Shown here: positions 8,886 to 45,798 of the stretch, piece after piece
Numbering within the stretch: the stretch's first letter is position 1
Layout of the letters: every line of letters begins with the position of its first letter
Assembly (NCBI GenBank): GCA_041497315.1
Contig: JBGQGH010000002.1
Location: forward strand, 4,270-68,269
Reading direction: 5' to 3'
Source: Terriglobia bacterium
Lineage (GTDB): Bacteria; Acidobacteriota; Terriglobia; Acidiferrales; UBA7541
DNA length: 64,000 nucleotides
Made by a program: the position numbers and the translations under genes
The notes under the pieces: model-generated
The model's input: only the letters and a program-made list of their open reading frames with translations
The model's database searches: none
Told to the model about the DNA's origin: nothing

Positions 8886-9605
8886 ATGAGCCGCATCGCT
8901 GCAATCCTTCCCGCCGCCGGACTCGGCACCCGCATGGGCGGCGAGACGCCCAAGCAGTTCCTCGAACTGGGTGGCCTGCCGCTCGTGATTTTCACTTTGC
9001 GGCGCCTCGCGAAATGCGAGGAGATCACCGACTTCTTCATCGCTACCCGCGCCGACGAGGTGGCCGCTCTCAGCGAACGCGTCCGTCAGGAACCACTCGG
9101 AGGACGGCCGGTGCGCGTGGTGCGCGGCGGCGGCACGCGGCAGGAGTCTGTTGCGCTGGCACTCGCGGAAGTCCCCGCCGACACGGAAATCGTTCTGGTG
9201 CATGACGCGGTGCGGCCGTTCGTCACCCGCGAGCAGATCGCGCGTGTGATTGCCGAAGCGCGCGAGCGCCGCGCCGTCATCCTCGGCATCCCGGCGATGG
9301 ATACGGTGAAAGAAGTAAAGCGCGCCAGTCTGCCCGGCGACGTCGCGTTGATTACGGCCACCATCCCGCGCGAACGCGTCGTACTGGCGCAGACGCCGCA
9401 GGCATTTGCCTTTGCGCTGCTCAAAGAAGCCTTCGCGCGCGCCGCGGCAGATGGCGTCAACGCTTCGGATGAAGCCGGGCTGGTCGAGCGTCTGGGCGTG
9501 GACGTCCACGTCGTGCAAGGCTCCGATCGCAATCTGAAAATTACCAAGCCCGCCGATATGGAACTCGCCCAGTTCTACCTCGATCAGGAGCGCCGAGCGC
9601 GATGA
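8886..9605 (+). CDS. ispD: 2-C-methyl-D-erythritol 4-phosphate cytidylyltransferase
   Basis: Motifs AAILPAAGLGTRMG, KQFLELGG and VLVHDAVRPFV. There is a 4-nt overlap with ispF. Confidence 0.9.
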   Translation: MSRIAAILPAAGLGTRMGGETPKQFLELGGLPLVIFTLRRLAKCEEITDFFIATRADEVAALSERVRQEPLGGRPVRVVRGGGTRQESVALALAEVPADTEIVLVHDAVRPFVTREQIARVIAEARERRAVILGIPAMDTVKEVKRASLPGDVALITATIPRERVVLAQTPQAFAFALLKEAFARAAADGVNASDEAGLVERLGVDVHVVQGSDRNLKITKPADMELAQFYLDQERRAR

Positions 9606-10075
9606 CGCGCTGCGGCATCGGCTACGATCTTCACCGGCTCGCGCCGGGGCGTCCGCTCATCCTCGGCGGAATCGAAGTCCCGTTCGAAAAAGGCCCGGTG
9701 GGACATTCCGACGGCGACGCGCTGGCGCATGCCATCTGCGATGCTTTGCTGGGCGCCGCGGGACTCGGCGACATCGGCACGCATTTCCCGGACACCGATC
9801 CGAAATGGAAAGGCGCTTCCAGCCTGCTCTTTCTCGAAAGCGTCCGCGAACGTCTTGCCGGCATGAACCTGCGCATCATTCACATTGACGCCGTCGTGAT
9901 CACGGAAAAACCGAAGCTTGGCCCCCACTTCCCCGCCATGCGCAAAGCCCTGGCCAAAGCCCTCGCGATCGAACCCGAGCACATCAATCTGAAAGCGAAA
10001 ACGAACGAAGGCGTGGACGCCATCGGCCGCGGCGAAGCGATTGCCGCGCAGGCCATTGTTACGTTGGAAGGCTAA
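9602..10075 (+). CDS. ispF: 2-C-methyl-D-erythritol 2,4-cyclodiphosphate synthase
   Basis: Motifs GIGYDLHRL, GHSDGDALAHAICDALLGAAGLGDIGTHFPDTDPKWKG. Confidence 0.95.
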   Translation: MTRCGIGYDLHRLAPGRPLILGGIEVPFEKGPVGHSDGDALAHAICDALLGAAGLGDIGTHFPDTDPKWKGASSLLFLESVRERLAGMNLRIIHIDAVVITEKPKLGPHFPAMRKALAKALAIEPEHINLKAKTNEGVDAIGRGEAIAAQAIVTLEG

Positions 10076-10085
10076 TTCACCCGCC

Positions 10086-10637
10086 ATGTCTCCCGAGATT
10101 TCACCAGACCCGGCTGCCGTCATCGCCAATCCGTTCACCTCCGCCGATGTGGCCGCAATTCTGCGCGAGCGCGGCTGGCTGGATGACACTTCGACCGGCG
10201 CGCCACTAGAGGCATGGCTGGCGCTGGCAGCCGCGTTGCTCGGCCCGCAATCTGCGGCTCGCGCGGCGCTGGCGGAACTGCTGAGCCTGGTATTCGTTTA
10301 CGACGCTCGCGCCATCCTCGCAGCGAGCGGGAGCCATCTTGTCCTCGCCCGCGAAGGCGCCCGGGAAGTAATCCGCGAGTTGGCTCTGCTGATCCTCGAC
10401 GGAGCCGAGGTGGATTCGGACCACTTCAAAGAGATCATCAACGCGCTGAAAGAAAAACTCGCCCATCGCGGACGCGAGCTTTTTTATCCCATTCGCCTCG
10501 CGCTGGCCGGACGAGCGGGGGAAGGCGCCCTCGACCGCGTGATCCTGCTGCTCGACAGCGCGTCCCATCTTTCGTTTCGCGTGCCGGTGAAAGGAACGCG
10601 CCGGCGCATGCTCGAATTCTGCGCGGCCCTCGAATGA
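10086..10637 (+). CDS. stand-alone glutamyl-tRNA synthetase C-terminal (anticodon-binding) domain-like protein
   Basis: The C-terminal RGRELFYPIRLALAGRAGEGALDRVILLLD matches the GltX tail pattern (K..LF.P.RvAltG...gP.l..il.llG). ATG at 10086. The stop overlaps the rlmB start (ATGA at 10634-10637). Confidence 0.55.
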   Translation: MSPEISPDPAAVIANPFTSADVAAILRERGWLDDTSTGAPLEAWLALAAALLGPQSAARAALAELLSLVFVYDARAILAASGSHLVLAREGAREVIRELALLILDGAEVDSDHFKEIINALKEKLAHRGRELFYPIRLALAGRAGEGALDRVILLLDSASHLSFRVPVKGTRRRMLEFCAALE

Positions 10638-11389
10638 ATACTCCGGCGATGAACAAGCTGACCGGGATCCATGCCGTGCGCGAGGCGCTCGAAGCCGGGC
10701 GCGCGATTGAACGCATCGCCATTGCCAGCGGACGTCACGGCGACCGCATCGAGGAGCTGGTCCAGCTCGCGCGTAGCAAAGGCGTGCCGGTGCGCTTCGA
10801 GGATCGCGCAAACGTGGATCGTCTGGCGGGCACGCGTGACAACCAGGGCGTAGTCGCGCTGGCCGCGGCGCGAAGCGCGCTCTCGCTCGAAGATCTTCTC
10901 GCGCAAGTTTCGCGCAAGGAGTCAAGCCAGGGGCTCATCGTGCTGCTCGACGGCATCGAAGATCCGCACAACCTCGGTGCGGTTGTCCGTACCGCGCTCG
11001 CCGCCGGAGCCGACGGCGTGGTCATCCCGGAGCGGCGCGCCGCGGGCCTCACCGAAACCGTCGCACGCGCCTCCGCCGGAGCCCTCGCACATCTTCCGGT
11101 CGCGCGCGTCACCAATCTGGTGCGCGCCATGGAAGAATTGAAGGAAGCGGGCTACTGGCTGGTGGGGCTCGACGAGCGCGCGGACAAGAAGTACACGGAG
11201 CAGGACTTCACCGGGCGCATCGGAATGGTGCTGGGCAACGAAGGCGAAGGTTTGCACGAACTGGTGCGCAAGCGCTGCGATTTCCTGGTTTCAATTCCCA
11301 CGACAGGGCCGGTTCGCTCGCTCAATGTTTCCGTCGCGGCCGGCGTGGTCCTTTTCGAAGTCGTCCGTCAACGGTCCGTCTCAAGCTAG
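10634..11389 (+). CDS. rlmB: 23S rRNA (guanosine-2'-O)-methyltransferase RlmB / TrmH-family
   Basis: Motifs IHAVREALEAGR, LDGIEDPHNLGAVVRTA, MVLGNEGEGL and IPTTGPVRSLNVSVAAGV. The listed 391-aa ORF is over-extended and the real start is ATG 10634. Confidence 0.85.
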   Translation: MNTPAMNKLTGIHAVREALEAGRAIERIAIASGRHGDRIEELVQLARSKGVPVRFEDRANVDRLAGTRDNQGVVALAAARSALSLEDLLAQVSRKESSQGLIVLLDGIEDPHNLGAVVRTALAAGADGVVIPERRAAGLTETVARASAGALAHLPVARVTNLVRAMEELKEAGYWLVGLDERADKKYTEQDFTGRIGMVLGNEGEGLHELVRKRCDFLVSIPTTGPVRSLNVSVAAGVVLFEVVRQRSVSS

Positions 11390-27381: not shown

Positions 27382-28128
27382 TCAGTCGGCGGGAACGCCG
27401 TCCACGATCACGCCGTCGCGCATGTGCACGGTCACGTCGGCGTACGCCGCCGCCTCCGGATTGTGCGTGATCATGACGATCGTCTGGCCAAGCTCCTTGT
27501 TCAACTGACGCAGCATGGCCAGCACGGTTTCAGAATTCTTTGTGTCCAGGTTGCCGGTGGGCTCGTCCGCCAGCACGATTTTCGGCTCGTTGATAATCGC
27601 CCGCGCAATCGCCACGCGCTGCTGTTCCCCGCCGGACATCTCCGCCGGCTTGTGGTGCAGCCGGTCGCCCAGCCCAAGCATCTTGGTCACCACATCAAAC
27701 CGGTGCGGATCGAACCCATCGCCGTGGATGTGCTGCGCGATGGCGATATTTCCGTAAGCGTCCAGCGTCGGCAGCAAATTGAACCGCTGGAAAACAAAAC
27801 CCACTTTGTGGCGCCGCAGCTTGGTGCGCCCCGCGTCCGACATCGTCACCAGGTCGTTCCCGTCCACCAGCACGTGCCCCCGAGTGGCCCGCGCCAGCCC
27901 GCCAATCACGTACAGCAGCGTGGATTTCCCGCACCCCGACGGCCCCATCACCGCCACGAATTCCCCGGGCAGCACGCGGAAGTTCACCCCGCGCAAGGCC
28001 GCCACATCCACCTTGCCCTGGCGATACACCTTCCACAAATCTTCGGTCTTGAGTATGGGCTCCACGAACAATTCCCCTGCGGGGACTTGCACCTCGGAGG
28101 GCCAAAATATTGTAGTCGCGTTTGACAT
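27382..28128 (-). CDS. ABC transporter ATP-binding protein (LolD/MacB-type)
   Basis: Walker [10 protein letters not shown], signature [14 protein letters not shown], Walker [10 protein letters not shown] and [10 protein letters not shown]. Confidence 0.9.
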
Positions 28129-28167
28129 TTCTGCCTAGCCGATTCCCCTGACCATCCGACAAGGATG

Positions 28168-28215
28168 GTCATCCCGAGTGAGGTCGGTTTCGAGACCGAC
28201 GAGGGATCTCTCTTC
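28168..28215. repeat. REP-like palindromic intergenic element, copy 3 (inverted relative to copies at 48.3/48.7 kb)
   Basis: GTCATCCCGAG + hairpin GTCGGT-ttcgag-ACCGAC + GAGGGATCTCTCTTC. A perfect 8-bp hairpin GACCATCC-gacaa-GGATGGTC at 28150-28170 lies immediately before it. Confidence 0.6.
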
Positions 28216-28488
28216 CATCCGGCCCTGCCGGAAGGGCTTTCTCTTCCATTCCACGTTGGTGAACTGCACGCACCCCTCCGCCCCGCCGCCAAATCGACGC
28301 CGCGCAACCCGCCTTGTATCAATCGCTTCCGTCGCGAATGGATTAGGGGGAAACCCCGCCCTGCCGCGCAGCCCCGCCACTGTCCGCTTTTCCCGCCGGG
28401 TAGCGAGGCGTCTCCGAGACGTACCACTATTGAAGCCCTCCTTCATGATTTGCCTTTCTCCCAGTTTAAGAATGACTCGTTGGAATCG

Positions 28489-31400
28489 CTACAAGTCCGA
28501 CTGCGGCGCTCCTGGCTGCAAAGTTCCACGGCGTAGCGCGCGCTCTTTCATCAAAGCGAAAAACACAGGTACCAGAATCAAAACGTGAATCGTTGATGTG
28601 ATCATGCCTCCCACGATGGGAGCGGCGATTGGTTTCATCACGTCTGAGCCGATACCGGTTGACCAGAGGATGGGAATCAGACTCGCGAGGACTGCGGAGA
28701 CGGTCATCAACTTGGGCCGCAGACGCTGGACTGCTCCTTCGATCACCGCAGCTTCGATGTCCTCGTGCTTGAGTGGCGCGCCTTTTGCGAGCCGGTGATC
28801 GAGAGCTTCGTGCAAATAGACGACCATAACCACGCCGGTCTCCACGGCGATGCCGAACAGTGCGATGTAGCCGACCCAAACGGCCACGCTAAAGTTGTAC
28901 TTGAAGAGCCACTGGAGAATGAGGCCGCCAGTCATCGCGTAGAAGGTGGGAAAAATCAGCACGATGGATTCCGTCACCGAATGGAAGACGATGTAAAGCA
29001 GCATGAAAATGACAAAGAACACGATCGGGAGAATGATTTTCAGAGTTGCCTTGGCGCGCAACTGGAATTCATATTCTCCGGACCATTTGTATGTGTAACC
29101 TGTCGGCAGCCGCAGTTTTTGTTGCAGCAGACTTGAGGCTTGCTGGACGAATCCGCCGTAATCCGTTGTGTTCAGGTCAATGTACACGTAGCCGGTGAGC
29201 TGAGCTTCCTCGTCCCGAATCATGGCAGGTCCGCGGGAGAACGATAGGGTCGCCACTTGTTCGATGGGGATCTGGGCGCCCGAAGGAGTTGCGATGAGTA
29301 CCCGGCGAAGCTCGTCTACGTTGTCGCGGAAATCGCGCTGGTAACGCACATTGATGGGGTAACGTTCGCGGCCCTCGACGTTCTGCGCGACATTCATGCC
29401 GCCGATTCCCGAAGCCACCGCTTGTTGCACATCAGCGATCGTGAGACCGTACTTGGCCGCTTCCGGCCGGTTCACCTCTACGTTCACATAAAAACCCTGG
29501 GAAACGCGCTCGGCAAACACGGAACGAACCTGCGGCACACCTGACAGGATTTGCTGTATTTGAGCGCCGATCTGCTGAATATCTTCGAGCTTGGGGCCTT
29601 GAATTTTCATTCCCAGCGGCGTTTTGATTCCTGTCAACGCCATGTCGAGACGGTTCTGGACCGGCATCGTCCACGTGTTGCTTAATCCGGGGAACTTGAG
29701 TTTCTCGTCCATCTCGAGGATGAGCTTTTCGTAGGTCATGCCGGGCCGCCATTTGTCGCGCGGCTTGAGCATGACTGTCGTGTCGTACATGTCGAGCGGG
29801 GCGTTGTCTGTTGCGCTATCCGAACGCCCAACGGCACCGAAGACCGTGTCCACTTCGGGGAACGAGCGGAGAATTCGATCTTGCTCCTGCAACAATTTGG
29901 AAGCCTCAACGATGGAAAGGCCCGGCAGAGATGTGGGCATGTACAACGACGAGCCCTCATAGAGCGACGGCATGAATTGGCTGCCGAGCTTGAACATCAA
30001 TGGAAAGGTAACGATCAGAAAAATGAGGTTAACCAGCAGCGTGGTTTTCCGGTACTTCAAGCAGAGCCGCAGCACAGGGAGATACATCGCCCGTGTCACT
30101 CGCGAAACGGGATTCTCTGACTCGGGGCGCAATTTTCCTTTGATGAACATGACCATCAGAACGGGAACGAGCGTGATCGCCAGTAATGAAGAGAACCCCA
30201 CAGCGAGCGTCTTCGTCCAAGCCAGTGGCTTGAACATCCGTCCTTCCTGGGCTTCGAGCAGGAACACCGGAAGAAATGAAACGACGATGATCACGAGCGA
30301 GAAGAACAGCGCCGGGCCAACTTGCTTGGCGGCGTCACTGAGTATGCGCCGACGCTCGGGGTCCGTTACCGTTCCAACCGTTGTTGGCGGCGCTACTCTA
30401 GGTGGCTCGGGCGCGATCAGCCCATTGGCAGTATCCATTTCGTGCGAAGCATTCGAACCCACTGACGCTTGCCGCTCGGCGAGGTGCCGGTATCCGTTCT
30501 CCACCATCACGATCGCGGCATCAACGAGAACTCCAATCGCCAGCGCCAAGCCGCCAAGTGACATAATGTTGGAACTCACATGCAGGTAATACATCGGGAT
30601 GAAGGATGCAACCACGGCAATAGGCAGAGTCAGGATCGGAATCAGCGCCGAACGGAAGTGGAATAAGAAGATGACGATCACGAGGCTTACGATGATCGAT
30701 TCTTCGAGCAGGGCGCGCTGCAGGGTCTTGATCGATTCTTGAATCAAGCCAGCGCGGTCGTATCCGGCGACTATCTCCACGCCCGGCGGCAGCGAGCCTT
30801 TGATCTCCGCTAGTTTCTTCTTGACCCCATCGATCACGTTCAGCGCGTTCAGCCCATAGCGCATCACCACGATACCGCCTACGGTTTCACCTTCACCCTG
30901 CCACTCAGCAACGCCGTCTCGAATGTCGGGGCCGAACGACACGGTTCCCAGGTCCTTGATCAGGACCGCCGTGCCATTCTTGGCCATGACAGGGACATTT
31001 TGCAGGTCCGCAAGAGACCGGAGGTAGCCAAGACCGCGAATCATGTAACGTGTTCCGCTCAACTCCAGAACGCGTCCGCCGACTTCATTGGTGCTCGACT
31101 TCACCCGATCGATGACAGTCGAAAGGGGGATGCCGTACGCGCGCAACTTGTTCGGGTCCAGATTTACTTGATACTGGCGGACGAAACCACCGATGCTCGC
31201 AACTTCCGCTACTCCAGGAACGGTTGCCAATGCATAGCGTAGGTGCCAATCCTGCAAAGTGCGAAGGTCGGCGAGGCTGTGTTTATGGCTGCGGTCCACG
31301 AGTGCGTATTCGTAGACCCACCCGGCCCCGGTGGCGTCGGGACCGATTACCGGATGTATATCCGGCGGCAACCGGCCCGCGATGGTCTGCATATACTCCA

Positions 31401-31731
31401 GCACCCGCGAACGTGCCCAGTAGATGTCGGTTCCGTCTTCAAACACGACGAAAACATAGCTGTCATTGAACATTGTTTGGGCGCGGACGGCTTTCACACG
31501 CGGCGCGGCTAGCAGCGCTGTCACGATGGGGTAGGTGACCTGATCCTCGATAATGTTGGGAGGCTCGCCTTCCCAGTTGGTATGAATAATGACCTGGACA
31601 TCGGAAATGTCCGGCAGGGCGTCAAGCGGAATCTGGCCCATGCTCCAGATCCCCGCCAGAGTCAGGAGAAGAACTCCTGTGAAAACAAGAAAACGATTGC
31701 GGGCGCACCATTCAATGACACGAGCAATCAT
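28489..31731 (-). CDS. cusA: CusA/CzcA-family heavy-metal efflux RND transporter
   Basis: MIARVIEWCARNRFLVFTGVLLL...DALPDISDVQVIIHTNWEGEPP and about 1080 aa with the RND 12-TM architecture. The ATG at 31731 lies 2 nt after the cusB stop. A 100-nt sample (30001-30100) is 51% GC. Confidence 0.9.
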   Translation of the reverse strand: MIARVIEWCARNRFLVFTGVLLLTLAGIWSMGQIPLDALPDISDVQVIIHTNWEGEPPNIIEDQVTYPIVTALLAAPRVKAVRAQTMFNDSYVFVVFEDGTDIYWARSRVLEYMQTIAGRLPPDIHPVIGPDATGAGWVYEYALVDRSHKHSLADLRTLQDWHLRYALATVPGVAEVASIGGFVRQYQVNLDPNKLRAYGIPLSTVIDRVKSSTNEVGGRVLELSGTRYMIRGLGYLRSLADLQNVPVMAKNGTAVLIKDLGTVSFGPDIRDGVAEWQGEGETVGGIVVMRYGLNALNVIDGVKKKLAEIKGSLPPGVEIVAGYDRAGLIQESIKTLQRALLEESIIVSLVIVIFLFHFRSALIPILTLPIAVVASFIPMYYLHVSSNIMSLGGLALAIGVLVDAAIVMVENGYRHLAERQASVGSNASHEMDTANGLIAPEPPRVAPPTTVGTVTDPERRRILSDAAKQVGPALFFSLVIIVVSFLPVFLLEAQEGRMFKPLAWTKTLAVGFSSLLAITLVPVLMVMFIKGKLRPESENPVSRVTRAMYLPVLRLCLKYRKTTLLVNLIFLIVTFPLMFKLGSQFMPSLYEGSSLYMPTSLPGLSIVEASKLLQEQDRILRSFPEVDTVFGAVGRSDSATDNAPLDMYDTTVMLKPRDKWRPGMTYEKLILEMDEKLKFPGLSNTWTMPVQNRLDMALTGIKTPLGMKIQGPKLEDIQQIGAQIQQILSGVPQVRSVFAERVSQGFYVNVEVNRPEAAKYGLTIADVQQAVASGIGGMNVAQNVEGRERYPINVRYQRDFRDNVDELRRVLIATPSGAQIPIEQVATLSFSRGPAMIRDEEAQLTGYVYIDLNTTDYGGFVQQASSLLQQKLRLPTGYTYKWSGEYEFQLRAKATLKIILPIVFFVIFMLLYIVFHSVTESIVLIFPTFYAMTGGLILQWLFKYNFSVAVWVGYIALFGIAVETGVVMVVYLHEALDHRLAKGAPLKHEDIEAAVIEGAVQRLRPKLMTVSAVLASLIPILWSTGIGSDVMKPIAAPIVGGMITSTIHVLILVPVFFALMKERALRRGTLQPGAPQSDL

Positions 31732-31733
31732 GA

Positions 31734-33305
31734 CTACATCCCTCCCGTGGTGTTGACGGAGAGCTGCTTGTTCGCAATGGTCTGCCCGTTCTGGCGCGCC
31801 GTGATAGTGACCTGCCAAGTGCCCCCGGAACCCAAGTCGCCTTTGCCTTCGTACATCCCGCCTCCTTTATCGGTGAGCTTAATGGCCGTTTTCATCGCTG
31901 CCATCCCCATGCTCGGCATCGCCGGCATGAAGAACGTGACAGTGACTTCCGCTCCCGCGATGGGCTTGCCGGCCTTGTCGGTCAATTTGACTCGAACTGT
32001 GTTGCTCCCCTTCTGCGGAGGCGACGGATCGGTGGTCAACTCCACGCTCGCTTGCGCCTGTGCCGGGGCGTTCATCGCTGCAGCCTGGCCCGCGCCGGGT
32101 GGAGGTGGAACGAACGAACCGAGCGCGGCCTGAAGCTGGCTCTCGGAGTCAATCAGAAAGTTTGCGGAGGTGACAATTCGCTCGCCGGCTTTCAACCCCT
32201 TCAGCACGATAAAATCGTCACCCACGCGGGAGCCCAACTGCACCTCGCGCGGCTCGATGTAACCGTCACTACGCTCCACAAATGTAATCTCGCGGGTGCC
32301 GGACTGTAGGACGCCGGTTGCGGGGATAACAAGTTGGCTCCCCATTGAGACCTTCAGACCCACATTGACGAACATGCCTGGTTTGAGCTGCAGTCCAGGG
32401 TTGGAAAAAACAACGCGCACTTTGGCCGTCCGCGTATCCATATCCACCTGCGGGTAGATAAAGTCCACACGGCCAGTAAACGTCCGTCCCGGATAGGTAT
32501 TCACGGTGAGCGTTGCGGGGGCGCCGACCTTTACACGTCCGAGATCGTTCTGGAAGACCTGCGCCTGAACCCAAACGGTCGAGAGATCAGCGATGGTGTA
32601 GAGGCGCATTTCCGGTTGAACGGCAACACTGGGCAGAGCATTGCGTTCGGTGATGTAACCGGAGACCGGCGAATCGACTTCAAGGTCTTGCCGCACCTGG
32701 CCGCTGGATTCCAGCCTGGCGAGTTCTTCTTGGGGAACATTCCACTGCCTGAGACGCTCCAAAGCTGCATCGAGAAGTGATGCCGCGCCAGTGGCGACAC
32801 CAGGCACTGTGCTCTGCGCCACCTGCTGCTGATTCTGTTTTGCCACTAGGTACTCGCGTTCGGTAGCCACTAAATCCGGGCTGTAAATTGTGAACAGCGG
32901 CTGCCCTTTGCGAACGTATTGATACGTGGCATCGGCAAAGACCTTCTGGATATAGCCGGAGAACCTCACCTGGACGTAGGCCATTCGTCTTTCGTCTACA
33001 GCGACATTGCCGGTGGTGCGAATCTCGTCCGCAACCAATTTTCGTTCGACCTCGCCGGTCTTTACGCCGATGCTCTGCAACCGTTGCGAAGAGATTTGCA
33101 CCGGAACCAAGGGAGCTTCTGTCGATGGAGGAGGTGTGGCCATCGACACGGCCATAGAATCCTGCGCTGACGAATTCACCTGTTTGGTTTGAGCATCTGC
33201 CATCGGAGTCGCTGCGCGATAGCGGAGCCACAACCCAACGAGGACGAGGGCCAGAACGATGTTTCCAATCAATGCCAGCAAGAACCCCGTGCGATAGGTT
33301 TTCAT
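31734..33305 (-). CDS. cusB: efflux RND periplasmic adaptor (CusB-like) with an extra C-terminal YtkA/FixH-like Met-rich domain
   Basis: A membrane-fusion-protein core (barrel-sandwich/beta-barrel patterns) plus a C-terminal 105 aa containing FFMPAMPSMGMAAM. Confidence 0.85.
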   Translation of the reverse strand: MKTYRTGFLLALIGNIVLALVLVGLWLRYRAATPMADAQTKQVNSSAQDSMAVSMATPPPSTEAPLVPVQISSQRLQSIGVKTGEVERKLVADEIRTTGNVAVDERRMAYVQVRFSGYIQKVFADATYQYVRKGQPLFTIYSPDLVATEREYLVAKQNQQQVAQSTVPGVATGAASLLDAALERLRQWNVPQEELARLESSGQVRQDLEVDSPVSGYITERNALPSVAVQPEMRLYTIADLSTVWVQAQVFQNDLGRVKVGAPATLTVNTYPGRTFTGRVDFIYPQVDMDTRTAKVRVVFSNPGLQLKPGMFVNVGLKVSMGSQLVIPATGVLQSGTREITFVERSDGYIEPREVQLGSRVGDDFIVLKGLKAGERIVTSANFLIDSESQLQAALGSFVPPPPGAGQAAAMNAPAQAQASVELTTDPSPPQKGSNTVRVKLTDKAGKPIAGAEVTVTFFMPAMPSMGMAAMKTAIKLTDKGGGMYEGKGDLGSGGTWQVTITARQNGQTIANKQLSVNTTGGM

Positions 33306-41779: not shown

Positions 41780-42358
41780 CTAGTCCTTGGCTCGCAGGGG
41801 CTCGCGATCTTTCGCTCGGGCGCGATCGCTCTGCGCCGCAGCGGTCAAGGCGTGCTCGCGTTCCAGATAGTCGCGAAGGATCACCGCCGCGGCCACGGCG
41901 TCAAGCGTATGCTGAACTTTCTTGCGGCGCGTTCCCGCGGGCGCGGCTTTTTGGGTGCGCGAGGAACGCGATTTGCCCTGCGAAGCGAGGACTTCGCCCG
42001 CTTCCCAACTGCTCAGGCGCTCGTCCACCAGTTCGACGGGCAAGCGAAACTCTTTTTCCACGCGGCGCGCGAAGCGCTCCGCTTCCGCGGCCATTTCGCT
42101 CGGCCTGCCGTCGAGGTGCACGGGATGGCCGACGAGGATGCGGCGCACGCCGTGCTCGCGAACGACTTCGCGCAGGCGGCGCGTGTCGTCGCGGCGGTTC
42201 TTGCGTTCGAGCGTGGCCAGCGGCCGCGCCGTCACCCGCGCGGGATCGGAAATAGCCAGGCCGATGCGCCGTCGCCCGTAGTCAATGGCGAGGATGCGTT
42301 CGGCGGGGAGATCCGCCGCAGGCGGGGAAACGTGTTGGGATGGCTTCATTCGTAGCAA
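41780..42358 (-). CDS. ruvX: Holliday junction resolvase-like / pre-16S rRNA nuclease RuvX (YqgF)
   Basis: ILAIDYGRRRIGLAISD and ILVGHPVHLDGRPSE...VELVDERLSS, with a longer than usual C-terminus. Confidence 0.9.
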   Translation of the reverse strand: MLRMKPSQHVSPPAADLPAERILAIDYGRRRIGLAISDPARVTARPLATLERKNRRDDTRRLREVVREHGVRRILVGHPVHLDGRPSEMAAEAERFARRVEKEFRLPVELVDERLSSWEAGEVLASQGKSRSSRTQKAAPAGTRRKKVQHTLDAVAAAVILRDYLEREHALTAAAQSDRARAKDREPLRAKD

Positions 42359-42560
42359 TTATACCGTGAATGCCAAGTGGCCCGCGCGCCGCTGTAACCA
42401 TCGGGCGAGCTTGCTACCCCGGCGGTGAGCAAGGTAACATATGGAAAGAGGCTATCGTCCAGGAGGCTCGCAACAAGAAGTGTGTTTGTCCCCAACGAGC
42501 ACCAAATGGCATGATGGGGGCTTGCCAGCCAATCCCTACATGGACCGCAAGGAGTGACAA

Positions 42561-42896
42561 ATGTCCGACCAAACGGCTGTCAATCCTGGCACACAGATTC
42601 AGATCGACGTGCGGAAGGCAAGCCAAGCCTGCAAGCTGCCCTACGTTTATTCCAATGTCGTTCTCGCTTCCCGAGTGGGGCAGGAAACCACGATTGAATT
42701 TGGGTTCTTGAACCACAACGACGTTGCCGTCGCTGTAGTTGAGAAGCGAGGTACCGCTGAGATCGAGGCGACAATGCATACGAGGATCTTTCTTACCCCA
42801 GCTGCAACTCTCACGCTTCAGAAGCAGCTAAACGCGGTAACTGAAGCACTTCTCAAGGAGTTTCCGCAGATTGCTGGGACGGTCGCAACGGAGTAA
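42561..42896 (+). CDS. DUF3467-like small protein (ORF A of the low-GC cassette)
   Basis: YVYSNVVLASRVGQETTIEFGF ... HTRIFLTPAATLTLQKQLNAVTEALLKEF fits the DUF3467 pattern (YaN...hS..EF..DF ... RI.LTP..ak.L..aL). A strong SD AAGGAG lies 6 nt upstream. Confidence 0.6.
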   Translation: MSDQTAVNPGTQIQIDVRKASQACKLPYVYSNVVLASRVGQETTIEFGFLNHNDVAVAVVEKRGTAEIEATMHTRIFLTPAATLTLQKQLNAVTEALLKEFPQIAGTVATE

Positions 42897-42906
42897 GGAA
42901 TCTGAG

Positions 42907-43413
42907 ATGAGAATGCTAGTCCGAGAGCGAGAAGCCACACAAGCAGCGGACCCGCGGCTGTCAGCAATGGCAGCGACCACCTGTGGGATGATGCTGTTCA
43001 CGGCTGCTCTCACTTCGACTGGCTGGAGTGCGGAAAGAAGAGCACACCTCCTACAGCCTGATGTAGTAATGGCCAGGGCGGCTGACCAGCTCAACCTCCC
43101 TGGACTGGCAAACCTGAGGGCAGGCGGGCTCCATGTAACGGCGCTGGATATGTTCAATCTTAGCGACGCTGTGACCGCGACGGTTTCGTTTCCCAACCTT
43201 GCCTACATCGAAGATTTCGACTCCGAACTCTCACCATTAGATGTTGGTGAAATCTATTGGGCCGCCTCTCTTACGGGCCAGAGACCTCTTCCAGGCCGTA
43301 GGGTTCTTGTGAATAGCGATGCTCAACGGGATATGCTGTCCGAGCGCATCTTGGGAAGCGCGACCGGCCTCACCCTGGGTGAAGATGACTTGGTAATCGA
43401 AGACTTAGACTAA
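42907..43413 (+). CDS. hypothetical protein (ORF B of the low-GC cassette)
   Basis: ATG 42907 has the SD AAGGAA 6 nt upstream and lies 10 nt after the ORF A stop. There is a possible single hydrophobic segment (LSAMAATTCGMMLFTAALTSTGW) and an acidic C-terminus. I recognise no family. Confidence 0.5.
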   Translation: MRMLVREREATQAADPRLSAMAATTCGMMLFTAALTSTGWSAERRAHLLQPDVVMARAADQLNLPGLANLRAGGLHVTALDMFNLSDAVTATVSFPNLAYIEDFDSELSPLDVGEIYWAASLTGQRPLPGRRVLVNSDAQRDMLSERILGSATGLTLGEDDLVIEDLD

Positions 43414-43432
43414 AAAAGTAGCCAGCCAACGA

Positions 43433-44203
43433 ATGTATCTGCGAAATCCAGCCCTTCCTCTTTCGCAGGGCGATATTTTCCCGGAGTTCCCTTCGATATA
43501 TTTACCGAACCGCGAAGTTCTGGTCGTTAGCGAAGTGGAAGGCAACGAACGGGCTTACCAGGTTGAGGCTCCTCAGCCAGGGCCGTGGAGAGACGCTGCG
43601 GGGAGAACCATCACCAAGAATGTTATTGTCCGCGCCGCTGAAAGCAACATTATCGTGATCTCCCAAACCTGCGACGTGGAGAGAGCCGAGACTCGCGTGA
43701 TTGACGGAATGTTGCGACCCGGATTGCGGTCATGGGTGACCTACTGCCCCATGATTCCTATGCGCGACATAGAGGGTGACCAAAACAGGCTCGACAATAT
43801 CAGGAAAAATGAACTTGTCTATCTTCACTGGTTGCCGGAGTACGGTTCCGCGGGGATTGACCTGGCCGAATCTGTTGTCTGTTTCCCCCAGGTTTCGAGT
43901 ATTCTGAAAGCAGAAGTCCCTTCTCAGACGTCTGATCTTGCCTCACGTATCGCCTCTTTAGAATCCCCGTTCAGGGAGCAGGTCGCGGCGAGATTCGCCT
44001 ACTTCTTCTCTCGGGTCGCCCTCCCAATGCAATATCCTGTTGGTACGACGCATGCGCCCGGCTCTCTTGTTCGCGAGACTGGAAACTACGTCTGCAGCGC
44101 GTGCGGCGGAGAGAACACGCTCTTGGAAGCCCGCGACAGAAGAAGATTTCCAAACGCCCACTGCGCGGGAGCAAGATGGCGCTTCGGCGGTAGACCGCAG
44201 TAG
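43433..44203 (+). CDS. hypothetical protein with a C-terminal CxxC...HC zinc-ribbon-like motif (ORF C of the low-GC cassette)
   Basis: 256 aa. Motifs LSQGDIF, IIVISQTCDVER, WVTYCPMIP and YVCSACGGEN...FPNAHC. It starts 19 nt after ORF B. I recognise no family. Confidence 0.6.
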   Translation: MYLRNPALPLSQGDIFPEFPSIYLPNREVLVVSEVEGNERAYQVEAPQPGPWRDAAGRTITKNVIVRAAESNIIVISQTCDVERAETRVIDGMLRPGLRSWVTYCPMIPMRDIEGDQNRLDNIRKNELVYLHWLPEYGSAGIDLAESVVCFPQVSSILKAEVPSQTSDLASRIASLESPFREQVAARFAYFFSRVALPMQYPVGTTHAPGSLVRETGNYVCSACGGENTLLEARDRRRFPNAHCAGARWRFGGRPQ

Positions 44204-44229
44204 GCCCGCGCCCGGGTGTCCCCGATGCG

Positions 44230-45798
44230 CTACGGTTGCCGGCCGCGCTTGCCGTTTTCCCACAAGTCCCACACGCCAAAGCCGTGCATCTGCTGGTCGA
44301 GGCCGGTTTCCTTCATCAGCGTTTCGATTTCGGCGCGCGATTGGCGTTTGCCCAGGCGCTCGGCGCGCTCGGCAATGCCGTAAACGGTGACGGCGGCGAG
44401 CGCGGCGTGGAGTTTCAACTCGCGGATGTCCACTTTGTCAAACGTGTCGGAAGCGGCGTGGTAGTTCACGATGTAGTTTGCCTCTTCCTGATTGGCGATG
44501 AGCGTGGGCACGCCTTCGACGAGGAAATCGAAATTGTCGGTGCCCAGCGGCGCGTCATAGGTATGTTGCGCGACGCCCCTGTCCTCGACCGGCTTCAGAA
44601 CCTCGCGCAGGCCCGCTTCGATATCGCGCCGCCCGCCCAGCGAATAGCCGGTGACGCGGCCGATGCCTTCATCGAAGATCACGACGGCAATGGCGCGGTC
44701 GAGTTCGGCGCGATGCGCCCGCGCGTAAGCCCAGGAGCCGAGCATGCCCTGCTCTTCTCCCGTGAAAAGGATGAAGCGGATGCTGCGCCGCGGCTTCACG
44801 CCCGATGCGGCGATGGCGCGCGCCGCTTCGATCACCAACGCGGCGTTGCAGCCGTTATCGAGCGCCCCGGTGCCCAGTTCCCAGGAATCGAGATGCGCGC
44901 CGAGGATCACGAACTCATCGGGCTTCTCGCGGCCGCGAATTTCGGCGACCACGTTTTCCTGTTCCGTCGGCCCGCCGATGCGGTTGGGCATGGCCAGGCG
45001 CACGCGCACCTTTTCCCCCGCGGCGGCGAAGCGCGCCAGGCGTTCGGCGTCTTCGCGCGCCACGATGGCTTGCGGCAAGCGATCGATTTCTCCTGTGAGC
45101 GAATTCTGGTGGCGATAGAGCAGGCCGTGCTCGCGCGTGGACATCCACAGGATGGCCGCAGCGCCCGATTTGACGGCTCGTTCGATGGTGCCCGGCGCGC
45201 GCAGGTATTCGTTGAAGAGGTCGTCCCAAGTGCGCAGCACGCCCGAATGAATCAGCACGATGGCGCCCTTCGCCGCGGCGCCCGCGCGCGCGAAGTCGGC
45301 TTCGGTGCCTTCGCCCAAATCCACGAGATCGGCTTCGATTCCAGCGGCGGGAGTAGCGGGCGACCAGCCCACTGAAACCAGATGCACCGGGAAACGCGCG
45401 AGCGAAAGAATGTCGAGGCGCGTGGCGCCTTCGCTCCAAGAGACCGGGATCGAATACTTCTCCGTGTGCACGTCGTCCACGCCCGAGCGGCGGAACGCTT
45501 CGACGCCCCAGGCCACCGCGCGGGCCATCGCCGGAGAACCGGTGACGCGCCCGCCGACGTGATCGGTCAACTGCCGAAGATTTTCTTCCATCGGAGATGG
45601 GCCCAGCGCATTGGCGATGATCTTCGGCGCGACGTCCGCGCACGACGTGGGTGAACTTGCCGAGCAGGCCGCCCCACTGGGAATTTGCTTCTGCATCGGC
45701 GCGGATTGCATGGGTGGGAGTTGCGCAAGAGCAGGAAGCAGGGAGACAAGGACGCAAAGAGGTACGGAAAGCGCGAAGAGAATCCGGCGATGCAGCAT
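44230..45798 (-). CDS. M28-family aminopeptidase with a PA domain
   Basis: Signal peptide, metal-ligand patterns ILGAHLDSW, FTGEEQGMLGS and NYHAASD, and a PA-like insert. Confidence 0.85.
   Translation of the reverse strand: MLHRRILFALSVPLCVLVSLLPALAQLPPMQSAPMQKQIPSGAACSASSPTSCADVAPKIIANALGPSPMEENLRQLTDHVGGRVTGSPAMARAVAWGVEAFRRSGVDDVHTEKYSIPVSWSEGATRLDILSLARFPVHLVSVGWSPATPAAGIEADLVDLGEGTEADFARAGAAAKGAIVLIHSGVLRTWDDLFNEYLRAPGTIERAVKSGAAAILWMSTREHGLLYRHQNSLTGEIDRLPQAIVAREDAERLARFAAAGEKVRVRLAMPNRIGGPTEQENVVAEIRGREKPDEFVILGAHLDSWELGTGALDNGCNAALVIEAARAIAASGVKPRRSIRFILFTGEEQGMLGSWAYARAHRAELDRAIAVVIFDEGIGRVTGYSLGGRRDIEAGLREVLKPVEDRGVAQHTYDAPLGTDNFDFLVEGVPTLIANQEEANYIVNYHAASDTFDKVDIRELKLHAALAAVTVYGIAERAERLGKRQSRAEIETLMKETGLDQQMHGFGVWDLWENGKRGRQP

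Follow-up and report, generated by a model that had tools for sequence, protein, structure and literature searches.

We analysed a 64,000-nucleotide (nt) stretch of DNA from a Terriglobia bacterium (Acidobacteriota; Acidiferrales; assembly GCA_041497315.1, contig JBGQGH010000002.1, positions 4,270 to 68,269 of the forward strand), hereafter the window. It carries a horizontally acquired cassette of three open reading frames (ORFs), ORF A, ORF B and ORF C, inserted opposite to the flanking orientation in the short gap between an M28 peptidase gene and ruvX in this Acidiferrales/Terriglobia genome. Sequence comparisons identify the cassette as a divergent member of a widespread, unnamed module family, the constant part of which is its last gene, of about 180 amino acids (aa). 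Judging from the predicted fold of ORF C, the gene layout and the contexts in which the module recurs, we consider it on balance slightly probable that the cassette is a mobile toxin–antitoxin or abortive-infection-type module. A preliminary description of the same DNA, made from its letters alone, had put the cassette forward as an acquired, undescribed accessory system of a toxin or defence type; as far as computation allows, our analysis supports this proposal, in which the toxin or defence role is the part that we infer.

The cassette is a lineage-specific insertion

The three ORFs lie on the plus strand between two minus-strand genes. ORF A (positions 42561–42896; 111 aa), ORF B (42907–43413; 168 aa from its ATG) and ORF C (43433–44203; 256 aa) occupy the first, second and third gene slots and are separated by gaps of 10 nt (A to B) and 19 nt (B to C). 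Shine–Dalgarno sites on the same strand, AAGGAG at 42549–42554 and AAGGAA at 42895–42900, each stand 6 nt before the ATG of ORF A and ORF B, respectively, and no recognisable site lies ahead of the start of ORF C. On either side are core genes that lie outside the module, ruvX on the left (41780–42349/42358, minus strand; Pfam RuvX, E = 1.7e-39) and the gene of an M28 peptidase with a PA domain on the right (44230–45798, minus strand; Pfam Peptidase_M28, E = 3e-34). The coordinates, gaps and Shine–Dalgarno sites of the preliminary description were all reproduced, and its naming of the two flanking core genes stands.

To place the insertion in its evolutionary setting, the M28 protein was scanned against one genome per species of the Genome Taxonomy Database (GTDB), which gave 293 relatives; loci were fetched for 80 of these and searched by tblastn with folP, M28, ORF A, ORF B, ORF C, RuvX and MltG of the window. 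The order folP–M28–ruvX–mltG, in which ruvX is syntenic with mltG, is kept in around 30 metagenome-assembled genomes (MAGs) of the Acidiferrales/Terriglobia, and about 26 of these have just 100–200 bp between M28 and ruvX. In all of these roughly 26 MAGs the junction is empty, with no tblastn match to ORF A, ORF B or ORF C, and the cassette is therefore a lineage-specific insertion. The empty-site genomes include the nearest relative, L007 (CAVTZX010000012.1), whose M28 and RuvX proteins are 88% and 73% identical to those of the window. Nucleotide homology between L007 and the window stops at around 44214–44228, beside the M28 stop codon, and restarts at around 42385–42395, at a CACGGTATAATTG block just upstream of ruvX. 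These homology ends, together with base composition, delimit an inserted segment of about 1.82 kb (42388–44211, borders approximate).

Consistent with acquisition, the composition of the insert differs from that of its surroundings. Its GC content is 55.6–55.7%, against a mean of 61.7% (standard deviation 2.8%) for segments of the same size across the 64 kb, which places it in the lowest 5%; at third codon positions (GC3) the cassette has 57–61% and ruvX, M28, mltG and folP have 72–78%. Low GC and GC3 are common to all three ORFs, which points to their acquisition as one unit. The foreign composition claimed in the preliminary description thus holds against both the window and the flanking genes, and its hand-counted values were reproduced exactly (51% at 43441–43540 and 64% at 27401–27500). 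That description had also seen neither an integrase nor a flanking direct repeat. No integrase was found near the cassette, and the sole tRNA lies at a distance of 10 kb. Both borders do, however, carry an exact direct repeat of 9 nt, GGCCCGCGC, on the plus strand. The left copy lies at 42379–42387, within a stretch (42379–42395) that matches over 17 nt at 82% identity, and the right copy (44203–44211) overlaps the stop codon of ORF C by its final base. Chance yields a comparable match at about 1.6% of positions in the window, and the empty site of L007 has the left copy too; the repeat is suggestive, but not proof, of an att remnant or a duplicated target site. When the exact sequences of RuvX and M28 were looked up, no strain variant of this population that lacks the insert came to light. 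A prophage at this locus was considered and rejected, because no phage genes lie nearby. As a clean, datable insertion in a conserved core block, the window cassette is useful for following the spread of the module in uncultured soil Acidobacteriota.

In a few related MAGs the same M28–ruvX site holds other, single genes. The gene in L008 (9649–10746) encodes 365 aa and includes a Rieske CxH...CxxH motif, and those in L041 (9531–10475) and L042 (9647–10561) encode prohibitin/SPFH proteins some 310 aa long (E = 2e-23 to prohibitin in the PDB); L011 (about 9500–10840) is also among the relatives with another gene at this position. The cases in L008, L041 and L042 indicate that the site tolerates insertions and has gained genes recurrently. 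Two of the bins, L016 and L041, are labelled Verrucomicrobiia, yet show acidobacterial M28–ruvX–mltG synteny and M28 proteins 65–68% identical to that of the window; they may be mislabelled or contaminated.

ORF C belongs to a large family with a predicted MazF-like fold

A word-indexed search with ORF C returned only the query and one relative, P0002 (51% identity), and phmmer against 1.84 billion representative sequences recovered 46 proteins at E < 1e-3. Most of these relatives are 170–230 aa long and align to residues 10–200 of ORF C, with phmmer E values between ORF C and family members ranging from 1e-76 to 1e-4. At least 530 copies are present in JGI metagenome contigs; these and the copies in IMG/VR were found by pattern scans based on part of the general-family alignment, the full 42-sequence alignment being too diverse for locus scans. 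Depositors label the family members 'hypothetical protein'. ORF C and the 42 family members gave no consistent match in Pfam, NCBIfam or PADLOC, and the family profile matched no PDB sequence; the one weak match of ORF C among the PHROGs was to PHROG 4575 (function unknown; E = 7.6e-4). Searches with ORF C and two family members by tblastn found no match in GenBank phages or PLSDB plasmids, and an alignment of the close relatives (A2) found nothing in IMG/VR.

The preliminary description had recognised nothing in ORF B or ORF C. Neither matches a Pfam, NCBIfam or PADLOC family, housekeeping families included, but ORF C turns out to belong to a large unnamed family with a MazF/PemK-like predicted fold. 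Two simple explanations were rejected: spurious ORFs, because ORF B and ORF C have diverged homologues, and a housekeeping function, because the genes are absent from all relatives.

The family is defined by three motifs. In alignment A1 they read QGD near the N terminus, SQ(S/T)CD, and SPYREhL..RF..FF.RVgLP; Q12, G13, Q78, C80, D81, P179 and E182 (ORF C numbering) are conserved in at least 90% of sequences and R194 is invariant. All are intact in ORF C, as QGD at aa 12–14, SQTCD at aa 77–81 and SPFRE..RF..R at aa 178–194. These motifs fall within a MazF/PemK-like domain (aa 1–200; 43433–44032, plus strand) that is common to the whole family. Behind it, ORF C has a Cys/His-rich tail (aa 205–253; 44045–44191, plus strand) with H207, C221-x2-C224 and H243-C244, which is conserved in P0002 and matched by P0006 and P0012, and is missing from the family majority of 170–230 aa; it is thus restricted to the closest relatives. 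The tail was modelled as three short strands (pLDDT 87–92) and is zinc-ribbon-like, with putative metal binding.

An AlphaFold model of ORF C, computed with the family alignment, reached a pLDDT of 89.1 and a pTM of 0.76. When this model was compared with the PDB by Foldseek, ranks 1–28 were all MazF, PemK or EndoA structures, with CcdB next; the MazF/PemK matches had probabilities of 0.97–1.0 and target-normalised TM scores of 0.57–0.69. In BFVD, entries named 'PemK-like protein' led the matches. ORF C is therefore predicted to adopt a MazF/CcdB-type fold, an SH3-like barrel with a C-terminal helix.

P0005 (L097, 6001–6558; also in L098–L100), which at 46% identity is the next-closest to ORF C after P0002, is N-terminally truncated and solitary, without upstream partners. 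It belongs to another Acidiferrales MAG, where a Ku gene is found some 2 kb away, and may be what is left of a decayed module.

The ORF C family is the last gene of a recurrent module

Genes related to both ORF B and ORF C are also neighbours elsewhere. On the unrelated contig that carries P0002 (locus L001), the gene directly upstream of the ORF C homologue encodes a protein 40% identical to the C-terminal 108 aa of ORF B, so that homologues of the two proteins, 40% and 51% identical, are adjacent in both places. The ORF B-type proteins have a C-terminal motif in common, LxLPxL..DAv..LFP..GEEIy/f..dPlP, with an acidic tail behind it, and the motif recurs in the upstream genes of L101 and L102. 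These two loci and the P0009 contig have the small–medium–ORF C layout of the window. The layout of the window is likewise seen in the P0007 and P0008 contigs (94–218–213 and 235–214–211 aa) and in the P0009 and P0011 contigs (269–142–214 and at least 118–233 aa).

We then called ORFs in 92 loci of the ORF C family. A co-directional upstream gene is present in 68 of the 71 loci with enough upstream sequence, and two such genes in 49 of 56. Genes 1 and 2 are separated by a median of -1 nt and genes 2 and 3 by +6 nt, with frequent overlaps. In 37 of 64 loci, the first gene is matched by a profile that we made from proteins positive for TIGR04255, and four of these gene-1 proteins match the NCBIfam model TIGR04255 itself (E = 1e-21 to 1e-39); in three Firmicute prophage loci it is DUF6941 of Pfam (E about 1e-10), and there are at least two further sequence groups. 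The window module, with the weakly DUF3467-like ORF A in this slot, is a variant with a first gene other than the majority TIGR04255 type. Gene 2 encodes a fast-evolving protein of about 100–220 aa that is usually acidic, often has a hydrophobic Ala/Gly-rich segment and matches no antitoxin or DNA-binding family. ORF B resembles these proteins in its net acidic charge, in a hydrophobic stretch rich in Ala and Thr at about aa 18–40 and in its acidic C-terminal tail, ..GEDDLVIEDLD. It matched nothing above threshold in Pfam, NCBIfam, PADLOC or PHROGs (best, DUF6405 at E = 0.13), and a word-indexed homologue search returned ORF B alone.

This recurrence bears on whether the three genes form a system at all. 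That they are unrelated lineage-specific genes, adjacent by chance, with ORF A perhaps no gene, would suit an ORF A without homologues and with a sub-threshold Pfam match, and the unrelated single genes (Rieske-motif, prohibitin/SPFH) that occupy the M28–ruvX site elsewhere. However, ORF B and ORF C are kept as neighbours in L001 at 40% and 51% identity, the layout recurs with overlapping or nearly abutting genes in most of the 92 loci and in distant taxa, and the low GC and GC3 of all three ORFs point to acquisition as one unit; we regard chance adjacency as very improbable indeed. Co-occurrence elsewhere, on which the preliminary description had made its proposal depend, is seen for ORF B with ORF C in L001 and for the ORF C family trio in dozens of loci, but relatives of ORF A were not found.

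In three IMG/VR loci (L191, 4001–5462; L193, 4001–5835; L195, 4001–6026), the genes downstream of TIGR04255 are not related to the ORF C family. The first and last slots therefore look exchangeable, and several different modules appear to have TIGR04255 as their common first component. The literature searched does not mention TIGR04255 or DUF6941 and holds nothing relevant on DUF3467.

The module occurs on phage contigs and beside restriction–modification genes

The trio is found on ten IMG/VR contigs. In one position it lies between a small terminase gene (Pfam Terminase_2) and a 520-aa ORF that we read as a putative large terminase; in another it follows a putative, lysin-like endolysin gene and a small helix–turn–helix gene near the end of a prophage. 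Both are typical positions of accessory genes. The complete genome of a cultured organism, Metallumcola ferriviriculae (CP121694.1; L186, 6903–16414), has a trio of 236, 120 and 176 aa between rlmH and a type I restriction–modification operon consisting of hsdM, hsdS, an insertion-sequence transposase gene and hsdR, a setting that is defence-island-like; being in culture, this organism would be well suited to experiments. The module also occurs away from such genes: L184, like the window, lies among metabolic or housekeeping genes.

A proposed toxin–antitoxin or abortive-infection function

The interpretation that we favour, with slightly better than even confidence, is the mobile toxin–antitoxin or abortive-infection-type module named above. 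In this model, ORF C would be a growth-arresting effector. ORF B, which is encoded directly upstream of ORF C and co-varies with it, would bind and neutralise ORF C in the way that MazE acts on MazF, with its acidic tail and the conserved segment at its C terminus probably mediating the contact. ORF A would be an accessory protein controlling the ORF B–ORF C complex, either as a sensor of phage or stress or as a chaperone or stabiliser of ORF B, a role modelled on the toxin–antitoxin–chaperone systems compared below. Loss or titration of ORF A or ORF B would then free ORF C, leading to post-segregational killing, abortive infection or growth arrest.

Several observations weigh against this interpretation, beginning with those on ORF C. 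Its relationship to the MazF/CcdB toxins is a link at the level of the predicted fold: the Foldseek E values against the PDB are just 2e-3 to 0.2, and the query-normalised TM score is 0.3, because of large insertions in ORF C. Neither ORF C nor any of the 42 family members matches Pfam PemK (PF02452). In hhalign, alignment A1 gave a non-significant probability of 0.8% against four MazF/PemK sequences, of which one, EndoA, was checked against PDB 4me7. The catalytic residues of the MazF endoribonuclease are Arg25 and Thr48 (Bacillus subtilis numbering), and in the sole stretch that hhalign aligned, Arg25 faces a variable column, occupied by S71 in ORF C. Within the model, the conserved Q-x-C-D, Glu and Arg of the family, without the MazF Arg, suggest a chemistry unlike that of canonical MazF, and the activity of ORF C is probably not canonical MazF RNA cleavage.

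The partner proteins and the surroundings add to these points. ORF B matches no AbrB, ribbon–helix–helix (RHH) or other DNA-binding or antitoxin domain, and hhalign found no relation of the ORF B-type proteins to gene 2 of the TIGR04255-type modules. ORF A, which the preliminary description had assigned to the DUF3467 pattern, does match Pfam DUF3467 (PF11950; aa 11–95 against model positions 15–81 of 92), but weakly, at E = 0.007 and 16.8 bits, below the gathering threshold of 25. A word-indexed search of 5.8 billion proteins found no homologue of ORF A; it has no NCBIfam match and no PDB sequence match at E up to 10, and hhalign found no relation to gene 1 of L101, the TIGR04255 set or the DUF6941 set. 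Its single-sequence AlphaFold model is unusable (pLDDT 42) and retrieved just non-significant, generic sheet-plus-helix matches with Foldseek. The place of ORF A in the system is thus suggested by its position, its ribosome-binding site and its shared composition, and by position only it may be an accessory protein, sensor, chaperone or regulator. In PADLOC-DB v2.0.0, no model matched the three proteins of the cassette, the 42 relatives of ORF C or the gene 1 and gene 2 proteins of other loci. Around the window cassette there are housekeeping genes only, with no integrase and no defence island. In the wider family, 147 neighbour ORFs from 24 long loci matched the PADLOC models RmrA (three), PDC-M41A (two), PDC-S70 (two) and PsyrA (two), as well as type I methyltransferase and type IIG models, and these matches, counted without a control set, are no more than suggestive of a defence context. 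Finally, no sigma-70-like promoter was found upstream of ORF A with a consensus that is poorly suited to Acidobacteriota.

Part of this evidence would also suit a non-toxic cargo of mobile elements, such as a phage regulator, a superinfection-exclusion factor or a host-takeover factor, in which the barrel would be a binding scaffold and genes 1 and 2 would encode its partners in a stable complex. The many copies inside phage contigs, at accessory-gene positions, fit this explanation, but the module also lies away from phage genes in the window and in L184. The variable column at the MazF catalytic Arg and the lack of a sequence-level PemK match speak for it; yet the solved structures that match the ORF C fold are all toxins, and the near-invariant polar Q, C, D, E and R suggest an active site. 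Gene 2 is without antitoxin hallmarks, although toxin–antitoxin loci usually have just such a small gene closely linked upstream. Solitary copies without an upstream partner, such as P0005 in L097–L100, also speak for this explanation, but the N-terminal truncation of P0005 fits the decay of a toxin gene. On this evidence, we consider a non-toxic cargo unlikely.

Less probable still is that a once-mobile module survives here only as a remnant, inactive or in decay, passively carried and with no current function. The lack of a clear terminator, the missing promoter-like site before ORF A, the lack of relatives of ORF A, the lack of a recognisable Shine–Dalgarno site for ORF C and the truncated solitary relative in another Acidiferrales MAG speak for this explanation. 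The three reading frames are nevertheless intact, two of them with good ribosome-binding sites; every motif of the ORF C family is preserved; contigs from three independent samples encode all three proteins with 100% identity; and the promoter scan covered only a sigma-70 consensus, with its poor fit to Acidobacteriota. A scan with Rfam detected no RNA family in the cassette.

If the toxin–antitoxin or abortive-infection interpretation is true, this would be an abundant, multi-phylum, prophage-borne module, with at least 530 copies in JGI metagenomes, that goes unrecognised by the annotation and defence-finding resources searched. The MazF/CcdB toxin superfamily would gain a larger branch, unrecognisable by sequence and probably with another chemistry, and TIGR04255, DUF6941 and possibly DUF3467 would receive a first functional context. 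A bolder version, which we hold only tentatively and think rather doubtful, is that the family represents undescribed tripartite conflict systems, for phage defence or addiction, comprising a MazF-fold effector with a new, Cys-containing active site (Q-x-C-D with Glu and Arg), a fast-evolving adaptor that restrains it and an interchangeable first component that controls the pair as a trigger sensor. Were it true, several families of unknown function (TIGR04255, DUF6941 and DUF3467-like) would acquire a function at once, and in Acidobacteriota the effector would have gained a zinc-ribbon module.

Other features of the window

The CACGGTATAATTG block upstream of ruvX (42350–42372, minus strand) is conserved in L007 (5186–5208) and contains TATAAT only about 8 nt ahead of the ATG of ruvX, an arrangement that suggests a ruvX transcript with no leader or a very short one. 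A second low-GC stretch, at 27700–33300, falls to 53–56% and may be another acquired region. It holds the gene of a CusA-type heavy-metal RND efflux pump (28489–31818, minus strand; 1066 bits to Escherichia coli CusA), next to which a 523-aa ORF (31734–33305, minus strand) encodes a putative membrane-fusion partner.

Comparison with known systems

The module resembles the type II toxin–antitoxin systems MazEF, PemIK (Kid–Kis) and CcdAB. The predicted fold of ORF C matches MazF, EndoA and PemK, and then CcdB; a small protein with an acidic tail is encoded just upstream, with short or overlapping gaps; and the distribution is mobile and patchy. In contrast to these systems, the upstream protein here has no AbrB, RHH or other DNA-binding domain, and a third gene is nearly always present. 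ORF C also lacks membership of the toxin families at the sequence level, as measured by Pfam PemK and hhalign. At roughly double the size of MazF, it contains large insertions and, in this branch, a zinc-ribbon-like tail, and its family keeps Q-x-C-D, Glu and Arg rather than the MazF catalytic Arg and Thr.

For the first slot, TIGR04255 (NCBIfam) and DUF6941 (Pfam) are the nearest counterparts of ORF A. Both are uncharacterised and occupy the same position, but ORF A matches neither.

Toxin–antitoxin–chaperone (TAC) systems, such as HigBA–SecB(TA) of Mycobacterium tuberculosis and CmdTAC, are likewise tripartite, co-directional operons. TAC toxins are of the HigB, MqsR, HicA or ADP-ribosyltransferase types, and thus differ in fold from the toxin-like protein described here. 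The gene order differs too, with the accessory gene first and the toxin-like gene last in our module. The TAC accessory protein is a SecB homologue, whereas searches of Pfam and of PDB sequences with ORF A gave no match to SecB. The TAC antitoxin carries a C-terminal chaperone-addiction element; ORF B has a hydrophobic segment and an acidic tail. In TAC systems a toxin is paired with a labile partner and joined by an accessory protein as the third component, and these systems can act in phage defence, with the chaperone sensing a phage capsid protein (PMC5105189, PMC6377645, PMC11618068).

A further parallel is type II Gabija, a multi-gene anti-phage system in which GajC is the presumed effector, a split MazF-like protein with its domain interrupted by an insertion (PMC13069673). 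The partner there is a UvrD-type helicase, GajB, and the cassette encodes no helicase. What the two have in common is a MazF-like domain with an insertion as the presumed effector, and type II Gabija thereby provides a precedent for the recruitment of this fold to defence.

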